From Squalus acanthias (lineage: Eukaryota), in NCBI GenBank assembly GCA_030390025.1, contig CM059432.1, forward strand, positions 68,202,001 to 68,266,000: a DNA stretch of 64,000 nt. Reading direction: 5' to 3'. The translations under genes were made by a program, and so were the position numbers. The notes beneath the pieces were generated by a model. It had not been told where the DNA came from. It searched no databases and worked only from the letters and a program-made list of their open reading frames with translations. Numbering within the stretch: position 1 is the stretch's first letter; every line of letters starts with the position of its first letter. Of the stretch, positions 3,814-60,500 are shown one piece after another.

Positions 3814-5808
3814 AGGGGAACAATTCGTCCCCTTAGCGCCTCCAGTTAGCACCAGTAGATGGCGCTAATGGGGCGCTAGACTAGCAGCACTGTGGCGAGG
3901 CGAATCCAACGCCGCACGCCAAGCCTCTTTTCCCCCCCCCCACCCCACCCCAATAGGGCTGCCGGTAAGAGGTATTGCTGGGAACGTCATCAGTTAGATC
4001 GGTGACGTCAGTAAGTGTGCAATGTTCACTGATCACCCGATTTGCAAAATTGACTCTCGCCACTTATGTCAGTGCATGGAGTAAAGACGGAGAGGGAGAG
4101 CTGATGTGAAGGACAAGGAAGCAAGGTCAAGGGACGTTATTTAAAGGGATAATTAGTAATTACTCGCAGCCGTCAGGTTAGTGCAGTTTCAGTGGTTTTC
4201 TGTTAGTTTCACCCACTGCAACAGTTTCATTCAGTAATTCCAAGGTTCTTTTGTATCAGGAGTCTTCTGGCAACTAAAAAGTAGCTACATTTGTTCTTCA
4301 AAGATTCAAACTGCTACACTTGGTAACATTAATGGGGGTTGTACTGGCACGCCACCTCGCCCTCCGGGATCTACGGCAGAGGGAGCGTAGCCAGCGAGAA
4401 ATATGGGAACATGTGCGCAGAGGAGGGAGGACGGGCCACCAGGGCTCTCAACAGGAGGCCTTACCCTCCAAGGGTATTCCGAGAGCACTTCTACCTTCAA
4501 TTAAGCGAAGAGCAGTGTATTAGAAGGCTTCGCTTCACCAAGGAGGTGGTCACAGAACTCTACTACCACCTGCAACCAGACCTCCAGCCTCAGACCTGGG
4601 TGACCATGGCTCTCCCAATGGCAGCCAAGGTCACCGTGGCCCTCAATTTCTTCGCCAGTGGATCCTTCCAGTCTGCAACAGGAGATATAGCTAACATCTC
4701 TCAGTTTGCTGTATCTGGGAGGTCACTGAGGCGCTCGACAGCAGAAGGGACTACATTGGCTTCCCGATCACGAGAGAAGCACAGGACGAGCGTGCATGTG
4801 GCTTTGCCAGGATAGCGGGCTTCCCCATGATGCAGGGCGCCATCGACTGCACCCACATGGCTTTGCGGGCACCGCATAACAATCCTGAGATCTTCCATAA
4901 CCGCAAAGGCTACCACTCAATGTGCAGTTGGCGTGCGACCACAGACAGCAAAATCTTAATGTTAATGCCCGCTATCCTGGCAGCAGCCTTCATCTTGCGC
5001 CAGACTCGTGTGCCAGCATTCTTCCAGCCACCACGTCAAGCTTGAGTGGCTGCTCGGAGACAAGGGCTATCCGCTCTCCACTTGGCTCATGACTTCTCTC
5101 CACAACCTCAACACTCATATAATGAGAGCTATGCTGCCACCAGGAACATCATCGAGCAGACCATCGGCTTATTGAAGCAACAGTTCCGCTGTCTTGAGCA
5201 CTCTGAAGGAGCCCTCCAGTACTCGCCAGAGCGGGTGTCCCATTTCGTGGTGGTCTGCTGTATGCTCCACATCTTGGCCATCATGAGGGCGCAGCCTTTG
5301 CCAGCAGGGTTTGCGAGACCACCTCAGGAGGAGGACGGGGCAGATGAGTTCGAGGAAGTAGAGGACGGGAGGAGGTATCGGCAAGACAATCGACCTTCTG
5401 GACGGGCTGTCCGTGACCGGCTCATCAGAGTCCGATTCACATGAATGAAACCCCAGACCTGTCATGAGCACACCTGGTTCAGTCCTCCAGCTCCTTCTGC
5501 TTGCTGAGGCAGCTGCACAGCCAGCAATGCTGAAAATGAGGTGCTGCAGCATCAATGAACCTCCCCTTTAAGTAGTAAAAAAGCCTGTGGCAATGATGAG
5601 TTGCGATTAGACTGCACACGATATTGGTCCACCCTTTAAGTCTAACGCCAATGAGCTTAGGTTTTAAGACCCGAGTTAGGACGCCAATCATCTTATTGAG
5701 CAGTGAGCACAAATTTTTCGTGCAGTCTAAAGTATTTGCACCTGCCGCTAATTCTCCAACTTTTCTACTGACACTGCCAATTCCTTGGCTATAATGAATT
5801 TCTAGCCC
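3814..5808 (+). mobile_element. PIF/Harbinger DNA transposon with frameshifted HARBI1-like DDE transposase (about 4332-5444)
   Basis: Transposase motifs RLRFTKEVV, ALNFFASGSFQ, QGAIDCTH, WLLGDKGYPL and RNIIEQTIGLLKQQFRCL. Imperfect TIRs (AGGGGAACAATTC / GAATTTCTAGCCC), with AAG on both flanks. Confidence 0.85.
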
Positions 5809-25803: not shown

Positions 25804-28800
25804 TTTTTTTTTTTTTTTATAATATATTCGTTCATGGGATGTGGGCGTTGCTGGCAAGGCCAGCATTTATTGCCCATCCCTAGTTACCCTCGAGAAGATG
25901 ATGGTGAGCCACCTTCAACTGCTGCAGTCTGTGGTGAGGGTACTCCCACAGTGCTAGAAGGGAGTTCCAGGATTTTGACCCAGTGACGATGAAGGAACAG
26001 TGATATACTTCCAAGTCAGTATGGTGTGTGGCTTGGAGGGGAACTTGGAGGTGGTGTTCCCATGCACCAGCTGCCCTCGTCCTTCTAGGTGGAAGAGGTC
26101 GCAGGTTTGGGAGGTGCAGCCGAAGCCTTGGCGAGTTGCTGAAGTGCATCTTGTAGATGGTACACACTGCAGCCACAGTTCGCCAGTGGTGGAGGGAGTG
26201 AATGTTTAAGGTGGTGGATGGGGTGCCAATCAAGCGGGCTGCTTTGTCCTGGATAGTGTCGAGCTTCTTGAATGTTGTTGCAGCTGCACTCATCCAGGCA
26301 AGTGGAAAGTATTCCATCACACTCCTTACTTGTGCCTTGTAGATGGAGGAAAGGCTTTGGGGAGTCAGGAGGACACACTCGCTGCAGAATAACTAGCCTC
26401 TAACCTGCTCTTGTTGTCACAGTATTTATGTGGTTGGTCCAGTTAAGTTTCTGGTCAATGGTGACCCCCAGGATGTTGGTGGTGGGGGATTCAGCGATGG
26501 TAATGTCGTTGAATGTCATGGGACGGTATTTAGACTCTCGCTTGTTGGAGATAGTTATTGCCTAGCACTTGTGGCGTGAATGGTACCTGCCACTTATCAG
26601 CCCAAGCCTGAATGTCTTGTTGCATGCGGGCATTATCTGAGGAGTTGTGAATGGCACTGAACACTCCCATTTCTGACCTTATGATGGAGGGAAGGTCATT
26701 GATGAAGCAGCTGAAGACGGTTGGGCCTCGGACACTGCCCTGAGAAACTCCTGCAGCGATGTCTTGGGGCTGTGATGAGTGACCTCCAACCACCACAACC
26801 ATCTTCCTTTGTGCTAGGTATGACTCCAGCCAGTGGAGAGCTTTCTCCCCAATTCCCGTTGACTTCAGTTTTACTAGGGCTCCTTGATGCCACACTCGGT
26901 CAAATGCTGCCTTGATGTCAAGGGCAGTCACTCTCACCTCACCTCTGGAATTCTGCTCCTTTGTCCATGTTTCGACCAAGGCTGTAATGAGGTCGGGAGC
27001 AGAGTGGTCTTGGCGGAATCCAAACTGGGCATCAGTGAGCAGGTTATTGGTGAGTAAGTGCCGCTTGATAACACTGTCGATGACACCTTCCATCACTTTG
27101 CTGATGATTGAGAGTAGACTGATGGGGCGGTAATTGGCCGGATTAGATTTGTCCTGCTTTTTGTGGACAGGACATACCTGGGCAGTTTTCCACATTGTTG
27201 GGTCGATGCCAGTGTTGTAGCTGTACTAGTACTAGAGGTACGGCTAGTTCTGCAGCACAAGTCTTCAGCACGACAGCCAGGATGTTGTCGGGGCCCATAG
27301 CCTTTGCTGTATCCAGCGTGCTTAGCCATTTCATGTTATCACATGGAGTGAATTGAATTGGCTAAAGATCGACTTCTGTGATGGTGGGGACCTCTGAGGA
27401 GGCCGATATGGATCATCCACTCGGCACTTCTGGCTGAAGATGGTTGCAAACGCTTCAGCCTTGTCTTTTGCACTCACGTGCTGGGCTCCACCATCATTGA
27501 GGATGGGGATATTCATGGAGCCTCCTTCTCCTGTTAGTTGTTTAATGGTCCACCACCATTCACAACTGAATGTGGCAGGACTGCAGAGCTTTGATCTGAT
27601 TCGTTGATTGTGGGATCGCTTTGCCCTGTCTATAGCATGCTGCTTCCACTTTTTAGTATGCATGTAGTCCTGTGTTGCAGCTTCCCCAGGTTGGCACCTC
27701 ATTTTTAGGTATGCCTGGTGCTGCTCCTGGAATGCTCTTCTACACTCCTTATTGAACCAGGGTTGGCCCCCTGGCTTGATGGTAATGATAGAGAGAGGGA
27801 TATGCCAGGTGGAATACAATTCTGCTGCTGCTGATGGCCCACAGCGCCTCATGGATGCCCAGTTTTGAGCTGCTAGATCGGTTCTGAATCTATCCCATTT
27901 AGCACGGTGGTAGTGCCACACAACACGATGGAGGGTGTTCTCAGTGTGAAGACGGGACTTTGTCTCCACAATGACTGTGCGGTGGTCACTGCTACCAATA
28001 CTGTCATGGACAGACGCATCTGCGATAGGTAGATTGGTGAGGACGAGGTCAAGTAGGTTTTTCCCCTCGTGCTGGTTCTCACTACCTGTCGCAGGCCCAG
28101 TCTGGCAGCTATGTCCTTCAGGACTCGGCCAGCTCGGTCAGTAGTGGTGCTAGTGATGCTACCAAGCCACTCTTGGTGATGGACATTGAAGTCCCCCACC
28201 CAGAGTACATCTGTGCCCTTGCTACTATCAGTGCTTCTTCCAAGTGGTGTTCAACTTGGAGGAGTACTGACTCATCAGCTGAGGGAGGGCGTAGGTGGTA
28301 ATCAGCAGGAGGTTTCCTTGCCCATGCTTGACCTGAAGCCATGAGCCACAGGGTTTGGAGTCAATGTTGAGGACTCCCAGGGCCACTCCTTCCAGACTAT
28401 ATACCACTGTGCCACTACCCCTGCTGGGTGGGACAGGACATACCCAGGGATGGTGATGGAGGAGTTTGGGACATTGGCTGAAAGGTATGATTCTGTGAGT
28501 ATGACTGTCAAGCTGTTGCTTGACTAGCCTGTGGGACAGCTCTCCCAATTTTGGCACAAGTCCCCAGATGTTGGTGAGGAGGACTTTGCAGGGTCGAGTG
28601 GGCTGCGTGTGCCGTTGTGTTTCGTAGCGGTCGGTTACAACTGAGTGGCTTGCTGGGCCATTTCAGAGGGCAGATAAGAGTCAATCACATTGCTGTGGGT
28701 CTGGAGTCACATAAGCCAGACCAGGTAAGGACGGCAGATTTCCTTAGTGAACCAGATGGATTTTTACGACAATCCGATAGTTTCATGGTTACCATTACTG

Positions 28801-51089: not shown

Positions 51090-52293
51090 ATTATCTTTAG
51101 TCATCCAGGGAGCTCTAGCTTTGGATGCCCTTCCTTTCTCCCTCATGGGAATGTGGCTAGTTTGTAACCAAACTATCTCCTCTTTGAAGTTCCTATTGCT
51201 CATTTACTGTTTTATCTGCCAATCTTTAATTCCAATCCACCTGGGCCAGATCCCTTTTCAACTCACTGAAATTAGCTCTCCTCCAATTGAATATTTTCCA
51301 CATTTGATTTTTCTTTGTCCTTTTCCATAACTACTCTAAACCTAATGATATTGTGATCACTGATTCCCAAATGCTCGCCCACTGAAACATGCTCCACTTG
51401 CCCCACTTCATTTCTCAGAACCAGATTCAGCATTGCTTTCTTCTTCGTTGGGCTGGAAACATACTGATCAAGAAATTTATCTTGTACACATTTCAGGAAT
51501 TCCTCCCCCTCTTTGCACTTTACACTGTAGTTTTCCCAGTCCCCTATTATCACTACTCTATAGTTCTTGCATCTTTCTGCAGTTTGCCTGAAAATTTGCT
51601 CCTCTATCTCCTTCACACTAGTTGGTGGCCTTTAGTATACACCCAGTAGCGTAATAACTCCTCTATAAGAACATAAGAACAGAAGAAATAGGAGCAGGAG
51701 TAGGCCATACAACCCCTTGAGCCTGCTCCACTAATCAATAAGATCATGACCGATCCTTGACGTCAACTCCACCTTCCCACCTGATCCCCAAAACCCTTAA
51801 TTCCCTTAGAGTCCAAAAATCTATCTTATCTCAGCCTTGAATATACTCAACGACTGAACACCCACAGCCCTCTGGGGTACTGAATTCCAAAGATTCACAA
51901 CCCTCTGAGTGAATACATTTCTCCTCATCTCAGTCCTAAATGGCCGACCCATTATCCTGAGACTATATCCCCTAGTTCTAGACTCTCCAGCCAGGGGAAA
52001 CAGCCTCTCAGCATCTACCCTGTTAAGCCCTCTCAGAATCTGATATGTTTCAATGAGATCACCTCTCATTCTTCTAAATTCCAGAGAGTATAGGCCCAAT
52101 CTACTCAATCTCTCCTCGTAGGACAACCCTCTCACCCCAGGGATCAATCTAGTGAACCTTTGTTGCAACGCCTCTAAGGCAAGTATATCCTTCCCTAGGT
52201 ATGGGGACCAAAATTGTACACAGTACTCCAGGTGTGGTGTCACCAAAGCCCTGTACAAAGGAAGATGGTTGTGGTGGTTGAAGGTCAAGCATC

Positions 52294-53949
52294 TGTAAGG
52301 GGTTTCGGTTCGGGGTGCTTGTGCGGGGTTAGGCCTTCGTTGCCTAATACTATTGCTTGCTCTGGTCTCCGGCCAGCCTTGTTGCAATAAGCACCTGTGA
52401 GTGGTTCGACCCACTCGCCGTTACGGTTCTAACACTGGACTTAGGTGCGAGAGCAGTAATGCAGAGAAAACTCAAATAGACCCGGTTGAATAGTACGAAA
52501 TGGAAATCTTTATTGCATAACGTCCAAAATCATGAAGTACATGTCATAGGCACAAATTAATGACAGTACAAGTATACATACATTCATAAAACTTGGTCTA
52601 GGGTAATGAGGAACGCACGGCACATCGTAAAAAGGGGAACACATTATATTTATCCTTAATAAAAACCACCCTCCCCTATCAATACCTACACTAATCTAGA
52701 TTTGTAGGATCGAGGAAACATACTCACCACTCGTGATACTTCGGAGAATTTTAAACGAGGCACTCGGCTTGTTTTGCTGCAACACCTGACTGTCACGTGT
52801 TGGAAGGGGTCTCTGTACCCCACTTGTTTATCTTCTCTGCTCCGGCTAGCAGGCTGGGCTCCCCGTTGTCATGAAGAACTCGACAGTGCTCGGGCCCGGC
52901 TGTAGAACTCAAAGAAAAGTCTTTCTGGACCGACACCAGTTAGCCGGTAAAATTCAAAGAAGTGTCTTCCTGTATTGATACCGGTTGTCGATAGAATTCG
53001 AAAGAGAGTCTTCCACTAGTTCGGCAGCAACCTGATAGAGTTCAAAAATGGTCTTTATATTTACGGGCGCGGTCGGGGTTTACTGACCGCGGCGGCACGT
53101 GGATTCTTCTTCTTCTCTTCTCATCTCGTCTCGTCGGGCCTTCGGGTCCAGAACACCGTTTACCGACCCTCGGGATGGTGCACCCGGTCACTGGCCTTCG
53201 TCGAGGCGACTCGTTCCAAATTGAGCTCCACCCAACATAGGAGAATAAAAGTTCAGCCCCCGTCAAGAGTCAGTTCAAACGAATAAGCCCCGGGAGGATC
53301 AGAGGAATAAGAGAGCGATGGACGTTTGTTCACTATAGTTATAGTGCTGTGTTCCCTTATCTCCCGCCCAAATCTTAATGTTCATCCTTTGTAAAATCTT
53401 GGCGCTCAAAATTCCCAGTATGGGGTGATTCTTTCCTTTAATGGGTTTCGGTAGCACCTTAAACTGGCCAACTATCTGTTAATGTTTTCCCCATTGTTGA
53501 ACCGGCTAGGATCCTCCCTGGCAGGGTTTTGGGGGCCTCCGAATACTTGTATAAGTACCTGAGAATGGCTCTCTCATTGTAGAGCCGGGGGGAATTTGCG
53601 TATTGACGTATCTGGATGGGCCTTCGATTGCCCTTTACAATGGTCCTTACTTGTGCATGGAAAATGATTCCAGCACTTATATCTTTGCTATTGTGTCGAA
53701 TGCAGACAGGTTGCATCCTGTCTTTATCAGTGTTTGCTGCGTATTAACCAATCTTATACTGAAATGTTTATTCGAACGCCATTTTGTCTGCCCACTGAAA
53801 ATTCTGGAAGCTTCTGCCACGAGGCGCGGCGGACATTTTACAGGCTTCTGTGTCCTGTTTAATCATGACAGCATTTCGTTGAAATAAAACTGATGAAACG
53901 AATCTGCTTTATCTCGTTATTTTGAATCGCGATAATTGCGAATTTTACA
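52294..53949 (-). mobile_element. 3' LTR (1656 bp) of an env-bearing LTR retroelement
   Basis: TGTAA...TTACA termini, preceded on the minus strand by the polypurine tract AGGAGGG-AC (53950-53958). Minus-strand TATAAA at 53054-53059 and AATAAA at 52509-52514. Confidence 0.8.
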
Positions 53950-54296
53950 GTCCCTCCTGTTGATGCGAATAACTCCGCTTATCGTATCAATTAAAAGTGG
54001 TGGTGAGCAAAATTATCCCGATTCTCCACATCCAAACACTCCCTTAACTTAAACTATCTAGGGTCTCCATGCCGTCCTCATTTCCCAGGGAAAATTACAT
54101 TATCTAACTTGGACAAAACCATAGGCAGTATTGCCTTTTAAACTTACATCGCGTATACGTCTTCCAGGTGCAACAGGCCGATGCCTCTCGCACCACCTGT
54201 ATATGCATTTTATTATACAAGGAGAAAAACTAATCAAACAACCATTTTAACAATACAAAAGTTAAAAATAATCAAACAACTCTTTTAAAATACAAA

Positions 54297-55189
54297 GGGG
54301 TAAAAATTCAGTTGGTTGCGCCTCCCGTTAGTGCCTTAAGAGGGCGCTAATGGGGCGCAAAGCCGCTAACGCCCGGGCGCAGCGATGTTTGCGCCGCTCG
54401 GGAACTTAACTAGAGATTGTTCGGCGGCGCTAAACTTTACCGCTGCGACCACCTGCGCGCGCAGATTGTGACGTCATTCCATGGTGCAACACCCTTGTGG
54501 CGCCCCGGAGCGGAAATTGAGTGGTGCCCCCTGCCTTACCGCCTGGCGCATCCAACGACCAGAAGACTGGAACGCTATCAATCGCTGTGGGGCTGGGGGG
54601 GGCGCTATTTAAAGGGGGCCTCTTCCTGTCTTTTATTGTTGGTGGCATTTTTGAACTACGCATTCTGAGAGAGAGAGGGAGAGACTTCTGGAGAGATTCA
54701 ACGTTGTGTGAAGGAGTTTTGGGTACTGAGCAGCACTTTGCAGGTTCATTTTGATTTGCCATTCCTTGTATCGATTTAGCAGAGACTGTGGGAGCTGCAC
54801 TCTGAGCTCTTTGCCTGGTACTCTCCATTGTTCTTTCCAGCACATTTGATGTGCAAGTCTCTCCAGGCCGAGATTCAAGGCTGCAATGAACAGGATGTGG
54901 ATGGAAAGCAAGATTAACCATCCCCTTTAAGAACTGGCCCGTGCCATTGTGTGTGTGTTCCATTGCTGACTGACATTACATGAGCTTCGCCAGCGCTCTG
55001 AGTTAGCGCCTCACTCCTTGGCCTTTGCGCCTTAAGACAGGTGTGCAGCGCCTGATTTAGCGCTCCACTCACCTCCCGGGGCGGTAAAAGTGAAGTTTCC
55101 AGTCAGTGCCGATAATTAGCGCCAGGCGCTAATATTTGCGTCCAGACGATATTTGCGCCCCAAATGGGGCGCGACCTAATTTTTACCCC
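54297..55189. mobile_element. Harbinger-type MITE inserted between env and the polypurine tract
   Basis: Perfect 12-bp TIR GGGGTAAAAATT / AATTTTTACCCC and TSD AAA. Confidence 0.85.
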
Positions 55190-55279: not shown

Positions 55280-57584
55280 TTATGCGGCGCTTTCCTCGTT
55301 CACGCGCACGTAACGTTCTCTCCACTCTCCTGTGTTCTCCTCCTTTGTGAGGCGCTTGCCTCTCTTGCAGTGCACGACCAATAGGTACACTACAATTATT
55401 ACTTGGCACACAACTAAAATGTGGGAGGCTATCCTGATCCATGAAGGCACTTCAATATTGGTGAACAGGTCCCACCACGGTGGGATTACTATGTCTAGAA
55501 TTTCTGTCCCTATCTTGACAGTCTTTTGTTCTAGGGTGTAAAAATGTTTTTGCGATACCGCGACGGCTTTCAAAAGCTTGGTGAGGTGTTCAGGGAGAGG
55601 GGGAATGATGTATCCGAAATGCGCGACGAATCGCTGCAAGTTGGTGAAATTCTCTTTTACTGTTAGATGAACAGTGGATGGTTCAGGGATCGGGACAATT
55701 CGCTGCTGTGCCACTTGAACTTCAGCCCTGGGTTTAAAACAGAAACTGCTGTCACTCACCGGACACCGGCTGCGGTCTCCATGCTGGTAGTGTTGCGCTG
55801 CAGTGGTAACGCAATATGTTCCACCCACTATGTATGCCACCTGCGGAGGCACATGATCTTGTGTGCAATTCATGGACTTGGCGCCAGCCGTTCTGAACCC
55901 GCATTGTGGTGTTAAAAAAGCATTCAAGTGCTGGGGACACAGGATTATGTGTGCTCCCCGACCACGACAACCCGAGAGATCGGTACCTGTCATCGTTTGC
56001 TCCCAACGGATGACGTAAGGTGGGACCGCTGCGTAGCGAATGTGGGCTCCCCGCTGAATGACACCAATGTTCTCTACCCAATACACCGGGGCGGGCTTTG
56101 CTGTGTCGCCCAAAACTGGCATACGTAATACTATACCCATGATGATATGGTTCGACCGTCCGCAGTCCACGGGGACTGGGTATGCCTCTGAGGCTAGCCT
56201 GAGCTGGCACGGGCTTAATGCGTTCTGAAAAGGGTGGAGCGCCTGCAGGTGTTTGTTACTTATCCAGGACGGGACCAAACCTTGTTTTAAATCCTCCAAA
56301 TTACTGCGGCCCTCGCCCAGTAACCACGCCCCGTATAGTACGCACACCTCGTTCTGCGCAGCTTGATCGGATGCATTCCGATCTTCCCTAATCAGGGCAT
56401 TTACCGTTCTCGCATGCTTCTCCAGCTCTGCTATAATTTCCTTTAAGTGTAGCGTCATGGCCTGGTCCTCATGTAACTCAGACCCTACTACCTTGTTTTC
56501 GCTTGTGAGGATGCCTTTTAATTGTGTTTTTAAACCATTGATCTGGGTCTGCAGCTCCACGTTGTCTAGAGCATTGACCACAGATGTTCCTGTATTAAAG
56601 GCGGTGAACATATCGTTCACAATACCCCTTCTTTGTCTCCCCACCTGACCCAAAACTTCGTGTGGTGTGGTGTACAAGCTTGTCTTGTCAATCTCTGCAA
56701 AATCAAACTCGTAGAATTGTCTAAACATGTTTGTCAACAGGACCTGGTACAATTGTTCCATCTCTTTGGGGCACCACTCTGGCAACCGCACCTCGGTGAG
56801 ATTTAAAATCACCGAGGCCACCGCGTAATGTACCCCCTGAAATAGTATCTGGTCTGTTGGGACCAGTACCAAACCATTCCCGGGCCCCTTAGTGGTTTTA
56901 GGGCACCCTTCCTCCTGAGCCAAAACCACCGGAATCGTGGGCGGGGCCTTGCGTGGGCGCGTGATGAGTTCAGTGGCGTTTACCGGGATCGGGGAGTATG
57001 GAGCTCTGCACCCCCTTGTGCTGACATCCCACCTCATCCCTTTCCCATTATCCTGCCACTGGTGCACGAAAAATATGGATATACCCTTGGGGCAGACGGA
57101 CTTCGATCCCCACAAACAAACATAAATTCCCTCATCCGGTTCCCACCATTTGTCCCAACAGACTTTCAATTGTCCGTTAGTCCCCGTAATTGTCCGATGG
57201 GTATTGTTACCCAATCGCTCCCACTCGACCGAGGAATTTCTCATATTCTTGCTCAATTTCCGTAACCACCACCATCGGCTCAATGGGACCTTCCCATTGC
57301 ATGTCAAACAAATCCTTTTGCCGACGGTGACGCTGATTCTGGGTGCAATGATCCTCACTCTGGGGCACAGTAAAGAAGTCTCTTTGTAGGCAAATCCCGA
57401 TGCACTGGAGTATTCCGTTGAATTCGTTCCCAGCCATCCCGGCCACCTACCCTTGTGGAAATAAGTGGCGGTCTCCTCAGCCTTTCGCTTCCCGGTCCCA
57501 TCCGTCGCGATGGGGGCCGTGTCCCCGGAGCAACCAAACACAACGACATCCTTGGTGAGGCCCCGATAGGCCAATCCATATCCA
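55280..57584 (-). CDS. Envelope-like class I (F-type) fusion glycoprotein of an LTR retroelement; 5'-truncated, about 767 uninterrupted codons, with N-terminal Ig-like domain
   Basis: Furin site RQRR|GIVNDMFTAFNTGTSVVNALD (56627-56638), following heptad repeat, Cys-rich region, TM IASHILVVCQVIIVVYLLVVHC (about 55367-55432), short tail and several N-x-S/T sites. Lies upstream of the polypurine tract and LTR. Confidence 0.85.
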
Positions 57585-60500
57585 ATAAGTGGCAGGTTAC
57601 ATTCGCGCCACAGAAGTGCCAGGCATTGACTATCTCCAACAAGCGAGAGTCTAACCACCTCCCCTTGACATTCAATGGCATTACCATCGCCGAATCCCCC
57701 ACTATCAACATCCTGAGGGTCACCATTAACCAGAAATTTAACTGGACCAGCCACATAAATACTGTGGCAACAAGAGCAGGTCAGAGGCTAGGTATTCTGT
57801 GGCGAGTGTCTCACCTCCTGCCTCCCCAAAGCCTTTCCACCATCTACAAGGCACAAGTTAGGAGTGTGATGGAATACTCTCCACTTGCCTGGATGAGTGC
57901 AGCTCCAACAACACTCAAGAAGCTCGACACCATCCAGGACAAAGCAGCCCGCTTGATTGGCACCCCATCCACCACCTTAAACATTCACTCCCTCCACCAC
58001 CAGCGTACCGTGGCTGCAGTGTGTACCATCTACAAGATGCACTGCAGCAACTCGCCAAGGCTTCTTTGGCAGCACCTCCCAAACCCGCGACCTCTTCCAC
58101 CTAGAAGGACAAGTGCAGCAGGCGCATGGGAACACCACCACCTCCAAGTTCCCCTCCAAGTCACACACCATCCTGACTTAAAAGTATATCGCCGATCCTT
58201 CATTGTCGCTGGGTCAAAATCCTGGAACTCCCTCCCTAACAGCACTGCGGGAGTACCATCACCACACGGACTGTAGCGGTTCAAGAAGGCAGCTCACCAC
58301 CACCTTCTCAAGGGCAACTAGGGATGGGCAATAAATGCCCATAAACGAATAAAAAAAATTAAAAAATTTAAAAAAATTAAAAAATTGCAGCAAGACTTGC
58401 TTACTCTTGTACTCCAACCCCCTTGCAATAAAGGCCAACATACCATTGCATTCCTAATTGCTTGCTGTACCTGCATGTTAACTTGCGGTGTTTCATGTAC
58501 AAGGACACCCAAATCCCTCTGAACACCAACAGTTAATACTTTCACACAATTTTTAAAAATTCTGTGTTTCTATTCTTCCTACCAAAGTGAATAACCTCAG
58601 ATTTCCCCACATTATACTCCATCTGACACCTTCTTGCCTTTCTATATCCCTTTGCCATCTATTTCTGTCCTCCTCACAGCTTACTTTCCCACCTAGCTTT
58701 GTATTGGCAGCAAACTTGGATACATTACACTCGGTCCCTTCATCTAAGTCATTGATATAGATTGTAAATAGCTGAGGCCCTAACACTGATCCTTGCGGCA
58801 CCCCACTAGTTACAGCCTGCCAACCTGAAAATGACTCGTTTATTCCTACTCTCTGTTTTCTGTCCCTTAACCAATCCTCTATCCATGCTACTATATTATC
58901 CCCAACCCTATGAGCCCTTAGCTTGTGTAACAACCTTTTGAGTGCTACCTTATCGAATGCATTTGAAAATCCAAATATACTACATCCACTGGTTCCCCTT
59001 TATCTACCCTGCTAGTTACATCCTCAAAAAACACTAATAGATTTGTCAAACATGATTTCCCTTTCGTAAACCCATATTGACTCTGCCTAATCATATTATG
59101 ATTTTCTAAGTGCCCTGTTATCACTTCTTTAATAATGGATTCCAGCATTTTCCTGATGACTGATGGCAGGCTTACTGGCCTGTAATTCCCTGTTTTCTCT
59201 CTCCCTCCTTTCTGGAATGGCGGTGTTACATTTGCTACCTTCCAATCCATTGGGTCCGTTCCAGAATCAAGGGAGTTTTGGAAGACCACAACCAATGCAT
59301 CCACTAGCTCTGCAGCAACCTCTTTTAGAACCCTAGTATGTAGGCCATAAGATCCAGGGCATTTGTCGGCTTTTAGTCCCATTAAATTCTCCAGTACTTT
59401 TTCTTTACTAATATTAATTACTTTAAGTTCCTCACTCTCATTAGACCCTTGCTTCCCCTCTATTTCTGGTATACTTTTTGTGTCTTCTATTGTGAAGACA
59501 GATACAAGTATTTGTCTCTGCCATTTTCTTATTCCCAATTATAATTTCTTCTGTCTCAGCCGCGAAGGAACCCACATTTACTTTCGCTACTCTCTTCCTT
59601 ATTGTTCCTCTATTGTTCCTTAATTCTAACCAAATAGATTTTGTCTTTGAACCCTCTAGTACATCATCCCTTTCCAGTGCTGTAACAGTATTTTGAACAA
59701 AACTGCCCTGCCTCCCCCGCCGCCCCCCCCCCCGCTCCAATTTCCTTCCCTATCTTTCCTGAATGCATTGTAGCCAAGAATATTAAGTGCCCATTCCTCC
59801 CCTTGTTTGAGCCAAGTCTTCGTTATTGCCATCATATCATAATCCCTTCTGCCCGCAGCTCACCAAGCTTATTTACCACACTCCGAACATTTACGCACAT
59901 GCACTCTAAACCCATCTTAGTCTGCATCACATTACCCTCACCCCCCACCCCCGTCCAATCCCTCCTATTTATGAACTACTCTTTATTCTAATGTTGTTTG
60001 TCTCTCCCAGTCTTCTGTGCACATTGGTTCTCCTTTCTAATGCTTTATCCTGGTGCCCCTCCCCCTGCCAAATTAGTTTATACCCTCCCCCACAGCACTA
60101 GTTAACCTCGCAACAAGGATATTGGGCTCAGCCCTGTTGAGGTTAAACCCATCCATTTTGTAGAGGTCCCTTCTGCCTCAGAACTGGTCCCAATGCCCCA
60201 GGAATCTGAAGCCCTCCCTCCTGCACCATTTCTCCAGCCACGTGTTAACCTGTCTTATCTTACTGCTCCTATACTCACTAGCATGTGACACTGGGAGTAA
60301 TCCAGAGATTACTACCTTTGAGGTCCTGCTTTTTAACTTCCTACCTAGCTCCTGAATCTCTGCCTGTAAGACCTCAATCCTTTTCCTCCCTACATCATTG
60401 GTTCCAACATGGGCCAGGACTCTGGTGCCTCCCCTTCCCCCTACAAAATGTTTTGTGCCCATTCAGTGATGTCCTTTACCCTGGCACCAGGGAGGCAACA

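Follow-up and report, generated by a model that had tools for sequence, protein, structure and literature searches.

The locus studied here, in a window of 64,000 nucleotides of Squalus acanthias DNA, is best read as a dead, 5′-deleted provirus of a large, geologically young family of endogenous retroviruses (ERVs) on the class III, or snakehead retrovirus (SnRV), side of the retroviral tree, a reading to which a probability of roughly 0.8 is assigned. The window copy is a pseudogene fragment with no function by itself.

In the list of open reading frames, a minus-strand frame runs from stop to stop over 835 codons (55280-57787). Its first 68 codons are antisense LINE sequence without an ATG, and the env part makes up the last 767 (55283-57583), which are stop-free, as the original prediction had stated; the chance of such a run in random DNA is (61/64)^767, or about 1e-16 by arithmetic. 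The LINE frames of the window are fragments of 150-341 aa. With its stop codon, the env remnant occupies 55280-57583 on the minus strand, and it is missing the start codon and short hydrophobic leader of the sibling copies. The window env has neither a start codon nor a signal peptide, and its first Met is at aa 114. The GLVLVP... stretch was confirmed in the env frame, and the order of motifs described earlier was recovered: a furin-type cleavage site, RQRR, at aa 316-319 (56627-56638, minus strand), 448 residues behind it, and one hydrophobic segment (19-residue windows from about aa 712-724), which hydrophobicity and the structure model predict to be a single transmembrane helix (about aa 714-739) with a 28-aa cytoplasmic tail (55283-55444, minus strand). 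These are followed by a polypurine tract (53950-53958, minus strand), identical in 6 of the 7 siblings shown, with the seventh sequence out of register, and by the 3′ LTR (52294-53949, minus strand; 1,656 bp, TGT...ACA). The CX6-7CC motif is absent from the window Env translation, in agreement with the earlier statement that CX6CC was not seen.

The spacer between env and the polypurine tract holds an 893-bp Harbinger-type MITE (54297-55189, unstranded) with 12-bp terminal inverted repeats and an AAA target duplication. Sequence L025 carries a 4.2-kb insertion that encodes DDE_Tnp_4, and the ends of this insertion are matched (85 %) by both halves of the MITE, which is missing from all 10 sibling downstream stretches. 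Host LINE fragments border the provirus on the 3′-LTR side (52255-52293, plus strand; 92 % match to the LINE copy at 26774-26812) and at the deletion junction (57585-57830, plus strand; 87 % match to 26356-26597). The two flanks are parts of one plus-strand LINE with approximately 176 nt missing between them, therefore a single post-integration deletion took the 5′ LTR, gag, pol, and the start of env, and with them the putative env splice acceptor, the start codon, the leader, and the 176 nt or so of LINE. Integration into the LINE came first; the deletion was later, as was the landing of the MITE behind env. In the top siblings, a Met (6 of 7) and a short hydrophobic leader (7 of 7) lie ten codons upstream, behind an apparent splice acceptor, and none of the three is present in the window copy. 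A private, in-frame deletion of 15 nt near aa 573 has also removed five codons from its Cys-rich block; the 15 nt are kept in all 22 siblings that span the site (26 compared, 4 not spanning). Three points go beyond the original prediction: the frame is without a start or signal peptide, a MITE lies between env and the polypurine tract, and an open frame is unremarkable within the family.

The family was searched for in the 3.7 Gb Squalus acanthias genome. Scored env matches include 59 at 95-100 % amino acid identity, 17 of them with stops. Probes for which up to two mismatches were allowed, and whose reversed controls gave zero matches, found 1,391 matches genome-wide for env, 1,624 for RT, 540 for the pol-less segment, and 12,110 for the LTR. 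The sibling layout is LTR-gag-(TGA)-pro/pol-env-LTR, and a large subfamily without pol retains gag and env. When 10 high-scoring siblings were read upstream, pol sequence was present in three and the pol core missing in seven; among 20 siblings sampled by position along contig C1, 11 have pol, five are pol-less, and four were uncalled. Pol contains protease, RT, tether, second RNase H, and integrase domains, Gag has one CCHC knuckle, and gag-TGA-pol lies in a single frame in all six copies shown. The primer-binding site (PBS) is complementary to host tRNA-Arg(TCG). Linkage of pol to env was seen only in the Squalus acanthias genome (three families) and not in frogs. Pol-less copies have a further frame behind gag; a lokiretrovirus-type smc gene was considered for it and rejected, since most of it corresponds to the end of Pol, its C-terminal tail (75 % over 264 aa). 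No smc gene was seen in 10 sibling upstream stretches.

Sibling LTR pairs are approximately 1.6-1.7 kb (TGT...ACA), with 4-bp target duplications in 6 of the 7 copies with readable ends. The pairs differ by a K2P distance of 0.0035-0.0138 (7 of 10 copies; three have no usable pair). Shark substitution rates would make the LTRs several-fold older than the rate applied here. At the latter, the one implied by Table S1 in the available part of PMC7947760, they are about 1-3 million years old. The LTR divergence and the deletion junction together uphold the original description of a 5′-truncated, recently active LTR element.

Sequence searches alone say little of what the protein is. Against Pfam and the PDB, the window Env gave nothing significant, with no Env family and no TLV_coat; a profile of 38 Env sequences reached a best E of 0.19 in the PDB, and 17 Env homologues matched no fusion-protein family in Pfam save for one Baculo_F at E 0.001. 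Gamma-type controls do match TLV_coat, whereas the shark Env has neither TLV_coat nor CX6-7CC. Among 1.84 billion representatives searched, 49 relatives were detected. Names were obtained for 24 of the 30 looked up, from sharks and skate (18), frogs (4), coelacanth (1), and eel (1), and a third homologue round with the Env profile added only close shark relatives.

Structure comparison points to an F-type fusogen. The AlphaFold2 model, built on the 38 sequences, has a mean pLDDT of 61.5 and a pTM of 0.43, with blocks of 80-93 across much of aa 231-630. In Foldseek, the top ranks are paramyxo- and pneumovirus F proteins (hPIV3 F, E 3e-10; foamy Env, E 3e-6), and 211 matches reach E ≤ 0.001; the TM-scores stay low, at about 0.3. 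VIA-align gave a Z of 12.8, and post-fusion Nipah F was aligned at Z 11.9 (rmsd 4.8, 282 aligned), the span being aa 234-700. A search of viral models adds lispi-, baculo-, and walleye epsilonretrovirus glycoproteins, and the ESM Atlas assigns Fusion_gly at 0.93 to the core. On this modelling, aa 234-700 (55484-56884, minus strand) are predicted to have the F-type (class Ib, paramyxo/pneumo-like) fold, a call that is sound despite the low TM-scores, with an F2-like part, the furin site, the fusion peptide, HR1, a beta-rich Cys block, and HR2. The putative fusion peptide (aa 320-341; 56561-56626, minus strand) is placed by its location behind the cleavage site, and long HR1 helices (aa 322-433) follow in the model. 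The F-type assignment of the original prediction is thus supported by structure comparison (hPIV3 F, VIA-align, and the Atlas). Its list of systems with a long post-cleavage subunit has neither foamy-virus Env nor SnRV Env, both of which have that layout. Its premise that epsilon-type Env carries an immunosuppressive domain and CX6CC is not supported: epsilonretrovirus Envs are neither gamma- nor beta-type in the available portion of 10.1101/2021.11.23.469661, and walleye Envs are among the top structural matches.

In front of the core there is a moderate lead, rather more probable than not in our estimation, that aa 70-200 (56984-57376, minus strand) form an Ig-like head. The region has Cys92/95, a Trp cluster, and a DxGxYxC motif at aa 150, and in the ESM Atlas it scores 0.88-0.90 for Ig, with the best family matches, 10 out of 10, in one clan. 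The Pfam Ig_3 match is sub-threshold (E 0.36-0.79 in the window Env, 0.0085 in homologue P0011), and the N-terminal region folded alone gave a pLDDT of 35 and no fold match, which is uninformative either way on Ig. If present, the head would be an attachment module. Its location at the N terminus is the spot at which the F scaffold tolerates receptor-binding modules, according to the part of PMC11468914 available.

By analogy, the family Env would be a type I trimeric fusogen of the paramyxo-F and foamy class. The Ig-like head probably bound the target cell, furin cleavage at RQRR would free the N-terminal fusion peptide, as in paramyxo-F and foamy Env (PMC11468914, in the part available), and HR1 and HR2 would zip into a six-helix bundle. 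For the paramyxo- and pneumovirus F proteins (hPIV3, NDV, Nipah, and RSV), the whole ectodomain aligns to aa 234-700, but at 6-14 % identity, and the shark Env has an extra N-terminal region of approximately 230 aa. These F proteins depend on a separate attachment protein. Foamy viruses have a long leader peptide, a Gag without a Cys-His box, and a Pol made apart from Gag. The shark siblings differ from them in having a short leader, no large receptor-binding domain between the subunits, a CCHC knuckle in Gag, and read-through gag-pol. What the two have in common is the class Ib fold, likewise that of paramyxo/pneumo F, and a long post-cleavage subunit (PDB 8RM0; PMC11468914, available portion).

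The SnRV sequence used, L053, is 10,688 nt long, the size given in the accessible part of PMC12193657, and has the SnRV RT motif. With the shark Env profile in hmmsearch, its third frame was the sole Env match, at 14.6 bits and an E of 2e-5 for the small set searched, the next Env reaching 2.5 bits. HHalign of shark Env against SnRV Env gave 91 % (E 1e-6, 345 columns, 22 % identity) over a span from a conserved CP..GP motif through the furin site, where RQRR is aligned with RIRR of SnRV, to the Cys block; two gamma-type Envs used as controls gave 0.3 % and 4.5 %. By these alignments the shark and SnRV Envs are homologous, which predicts that SnRV Env is F-type. In the literature searched, no paper was found that calls the SnRV-clade Env F-type; such a statement may be in print, subscription literature having been thinly covered. 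The accessible parts of PMC12583693, 10.1101/2024.03.17.585361, PMC12690878, and PMC9447858 contain nothing on SnRV Env structure.

SnRV and the shark family are also alike in having gag-stop-pol in one frame (likewise true of gamma/epsilon), a colinear Env including the furin site, and an Arg-type primer site; a PBS was located in SnRV as well and is of the Arg-tRNA type. The shark family differs from SnRV in a 28-aa Env tail, against 136 aa, in its 1.65-kb LTR, in TGA not TAG at the end of gag, and in the probable Ig-like head. SnRV-related ERVs are known in cartilaginous fish, including elephant shark (PMC4422223, PMC6001957, and PMC11089739, in the portions available).

The pol sequences are compatible with the same side of the tree. 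Its closest pols are from frogs and coelacanth (RT identity 44-52 %, versus 33-38 % to lokiretroviruses), and the shark, frog, and coelacanth RTs form one branch, with support of 97-99 in two trees. A viral-contig scan with a single RT gave no match, and an alignment-based scan did find matches; the best of the 15 viral RT matches was SnRV (45 % over the core, versus 34-37 % for gammaretroviruses). The PDB matches to RT-RH, named by their entry codes, are MLV-type (241 bits), foamy (211), and Ty3 (144). In AU tests on RT plus tether (444 columns), groupings with lokiretroviruses (p 0.012), gypsy (0.012), and gamma/epsilon (2e-57) were rejected, and grouping with SnRV was not (0.10); a separate test on RT plus tether gave p 0.005 for the lokiretrovirus grouping. 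With the RT core alone (217 columns), nothing was rejected (lokiretroviruses, p 0.17 and 0.057). The trees were built without foamy, alpha, beta, or lenti reference RTs, and one of the four is a quick tree.

In the free tree the shark, frog, and coelacanth group is not joined to SnRV; there is a basal polytomy, and SnRV lies elsewhere at weak support. It is therefore worth considering that these animals carry a separate class III lineage, apart from SnRV proper, whose Env type is common with SnRV, whether inherited or acquired through env exchange. The single well-supported branch would agree with this, as would an Env only 22 % identical to that of SnRV, which itself has a longer N-terminal part and tail. 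A class III pol with a gamma-type Env has been reported in frogs (10.1101/2021.11.23.469661, available part), therefore env exchange does occur in the clade. Against a separate lineage, monophyly with SnRV is not rejected, and the RT motifs, the in-frame gag-stop-pol, and the Arg-type PBS agree with SnRV. The separate lineage is doubtful, and an SnRV-side family is preferred.

Two further groups with similar Envs are set apart by their RTs. The Envs of the walleye epsilonretroviruses WEHV-1 and WDSV (BFVD models) rank 2 and 8 among the matches to viral models (E 6e-12 and 3e-10), but they are 1,160-1,320 aa long with TM-scores of 0.13-0.26, and the RT grouping with gamma/epsilon is rejected, as given above. 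Likewise, F-type errantiviruses (Ty3/gypsy) have an Env of the same type (10.1101/2023.10.26.564294, accessible portion), and the RT grouping with gypsy is rejected. In the parts of the sources available, F-like Env is known in lokiretroviruses (PMC7947760), foamy viruses (PMC11468914), and errantiviruses (10.1101/2023.10.26.564294), and a published survey of anamniote Envs has gamma- and beta-type only (10.1101/2021.11.23.469661).

Selection on env was examined across the family. The first dN/dS set had been chosen by protein score and was therefore biased; the analysis was redone on a positional sample, still requiring an exact match to a 26-nt probe. In the 20 positional copies, env is fully open in three, open with large in-frame deletions in two, truncated in one, and interrupted by stops or frameshifts in 14. 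For the 18 copies with at least 500 aligned codons (153 pairs), mean dN is 0.030 and mean dS 0.241, a ratio of 0.125. In the same sample, pN/pS is 0.11 for shared variants versus 0.44 for singletons (Fisher p 1e-18). Comparison of pol-less with pol-less copies gave an env dN/dS of 0.11 (seven copies, three of which come from the score-picked set), and the env tree mixes pol-less with pol-bearing copies. Spread of the family probably required Env, the purifying selection arising, it would seem, because new germline copies were made via enveloped particles; pol-less genomes may have been co-packaged and have recombined with pol-bearing ones. Three routes of ERV amplification are listed in the available part of PMC10435555, and of these the constraint on env and the mixing of copies fit reinfection plus complementation in trans.

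The low dN/dS might also date from an exogenous phase instead of endogenous reinfection. In its full form this would mean that an exogenous virus in circulation gave rise to the copies by infecting the germline many separate times, with the selection on env belonging to the exogenous phase and any later intragenomic copying being Env-free. The mean dS of 0.24 between copies is far above the LTR divergence (0.004-0.014), therefore most of the diversity predates integration, and the RT probe matches outnumber those of env; both would suit separate infections. Yet the pol-less subfamily (approximately 540 probe matches) keeps env at a dN/dS of 0.11 and swaps env with pol-bearing copies, for which continued co-packaging is the easier explanation, and a working Env is required by either route. 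Separate infections as the whole account are unlikely, and spread as enveloped particles with helper-dependent partners remains the preferred reading.

It is highly improbable that the family is a lokiretrovirus that fills the cartilaginous-fish gap. The likeness is real, since the published lokiretroviral features in the accessible part of PMC7947760 (an F-like Env with furin site, fusion peptide, coiled coil, and TM, dual RNase H, and gag-pol-env between LTRs) recur here: the shark Env has the RXK/RR-type site, fusion peptide, coiled coil, and TM, with the leader only in siblings, and the dual RNase H (tether plus RH) is present, although it is common to all retroviruses and not diagnostic. 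Lokiretroviruses are further defined by an RT clade sister to all other retroviruses, and by an integrase that lies closest to CGIN1/NYNRIN. The integrase tree (weakly resolved, without CGIN1) places the group nearer lokiretroviruses and gypsy than gamma/epsilon, the top pol matches are annotated NYNRIN-like, the RT core does not reject the grouping, and one eel protein is a weak Env match (P0050, E 9e-4). It is the RT clade and motifs that differ. The shark RT has LPQG/YVDD, whereas the lokiretrovirus rows in the available supplement of PMC7947760 have CPFG or TPFG and IYVDDILM; five QGFH/QGLH and five YVDDLLL-type motifs of the shark group were not found in that supplement, pages 301-318 aside. 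Three eel pols, with RT motifs near letter-identical to those rows, stood in for lokiretroviruses, and their RTs fell outside the branch of shark RT and other retroviruses in all four trees; together with the AU tests and an RT identity of only 33-38 %, this argues against membership. The six chondrichthyan genomes found in Table S2 of PMC7947760, in the portion available, are all without the star that we take to mark the presence of lokiretroviruses. The lokiretrovirus-like or gypsy lineage proposed originally was thus not sustained, both being rejected on RT plus tether though the RT core did not reject lokiretroviruses. Judged on its sequences, the family would be a class III, SnRV-related ERV with an Env that works like those of lokiretroviruses and foamy viruses.

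As for the window copy, given the 18 private substitutions of its env (seven-copy set), the probability of no stop is 0.42, and the short time elapsed explains why the frame is still open. Its singletons number six synonymous and 10 nonsynonymous in the positional sample; in the seven-copy set their pN/pS is 0.47, and neutrality is not rejected (p 0.15, with few changes). The private changes fit neutral decay, Env having been constrained while the family multiplied and this copy having drifted since. Without promoter, acceptor, start, and leader, the copy most likely makes no Env. Four sequencing runs of uncertain type have contigs across env, with none listed across the env-LINE junction, and carry no weight for or against expression. 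The captured-fusogen option of the original prediction, a domesticated, syncytin-like gene retained by the host, is hardly credible, also by the criteria set there: the 767 open codons, the rarity of fully open siblings (3 of the 20 sampled), and a singleton ratio below 1 speak for it, but the copy is one of more than 1,300 near-identical siblings genome-wide, has lost its start codon, leader, and native acceptor and five codons of its Cys-rich block, would be stop-free by chance alone at 0.42, and has a singleton ratio the same as that of other copies (0.44), its private changes being indistinguishable from neutral.

These findings matter for the family's link to SnRV Env, not for the window locus. 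SnRV is currently classed under Orthoretrovirinae, and PMC11468914, in the part available, backs the subfamily split with the structural dissimilarity of foamy and orthoretroviral Env. If an SnRV-side RT goes with an F-type Env that is a homologue of SnRV Env, the foamy/orthoretroviral split would be blurred and the F-type fusogen shifted towards the root of the Retroviridae. SnRV is a living virus that has been grown in fish cells, therefore the structural prediction is testable on an existing virus. There are hints that F-type Env is old and widespread among retroviruses. We tentatively propose, at somewhat less than even odds, that retroviruses began with an F-type (class Ib) fusogen as their ancestral Env, surviving in foamy viruses, lokiretroviruses, and the SnRV clade including infectious SnRV, and probably in walleye epsilonretroviruses, with gamma- and beta-type Envs as later replacements; the shark form would have a captured Ig attachment head, and its recent spread would have been in enveloped particles, alongside a pol-less partner family dependent on a helper. 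Since no Env family is matched by Pfam, surveys keyed on gamma-type motifs or on Pfam miss such genes, and the Env-bearing ERVs of sharks, rays, frogs, and coelacanth are probably undercounted.

Seven sibling copies of the endogenous retrovirus (ERV) family (L009, L013, L015, L017, L019, L021, and L027) are assigned to a pol-less subfamily, based on the stretches upstream of env. In these copies, a segment of approximately 250–300 nt is present in place of the PR-RT-RH-IN core, with no other occurrence among the fetched stretches. This segment maintains an open frame of 290–460 aa past the gag stop, the end of which is the Pol C-terminal tail, and a probe for it has about 540 matches in the host assembly. 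In L023 (7855–8211) and its siblings, the Pol C-terminus contains a tandem duplication of approximately 175 nt, the copies of which are 80–84 % alike, located in a long acidic tail C-terminal to the integrase.

On contig C1 of the assembly, there are 81 exact matches to the RT probe versus 31 to the env probe; there may therefore be a pol-bearing subfamily that either lacks env or has a divergent env. Three copies of env are found in tandem at C3234:241860–266146 (L006 and L007), at a spacing of approximately 11 kb. Two of the three have no nucleotide differences across env, and the trio is explained either as a tandem array or as duplication within the assembly.

Harbinger-related insertions are repeatedly seen within or adjoining members of this family, in the window (54297–55189), L021, L023, and L025; direct comparison of the window MITE was made with L025 only. 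Reading of the sequence also identified a fragment resembling the N-terminus of a Harbinger transposase at 4333–4815 (+) and 3836–3876 of the window, one end of which resembles the MITE at 54318. The fragment has no Pfam matches.

Additional F-type env families (L050, L051, and L052) are present in the assembly, most of them older, with 34–81 % identity to one Chiloscyllium protein. Both L050 and L051 contain pol, in the same RT group as the window family, and in L050 a pair of LTR-like repeats (90 %) encloses env only, with pol external to the pair. No pol was seen in the L052 stretch.

Among database homologues of the window Env, gene models from Pristiophorus and Heterodontus (P0003, P0004, P0005, and P0033) join env pieces to Niban-, zinc-finger-, cadherin-, and Fbxo15-like genes. 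These are probably annotation chimeras, or possibly exonised ERV pieces. P0034 has a weak V-set match. Homologues from frogs, coelacanth, and eel (the Mantella cluster P0044, with 16 members, most of 677 aa; P0019; P0032/P0066; P0048; and P0050/P0187) differ in the length of the N-terminal head.

A structure search of the viral models in BFVD returned, among the F-like matches, a fish filovirus glycoprotein, an abalone herpesvirus protein, and the Env models of walleye dermal sarcoma virus and epidermal hyperplasia virus. The walleye virus models suggest that true epsilon Env is itself of the F type.
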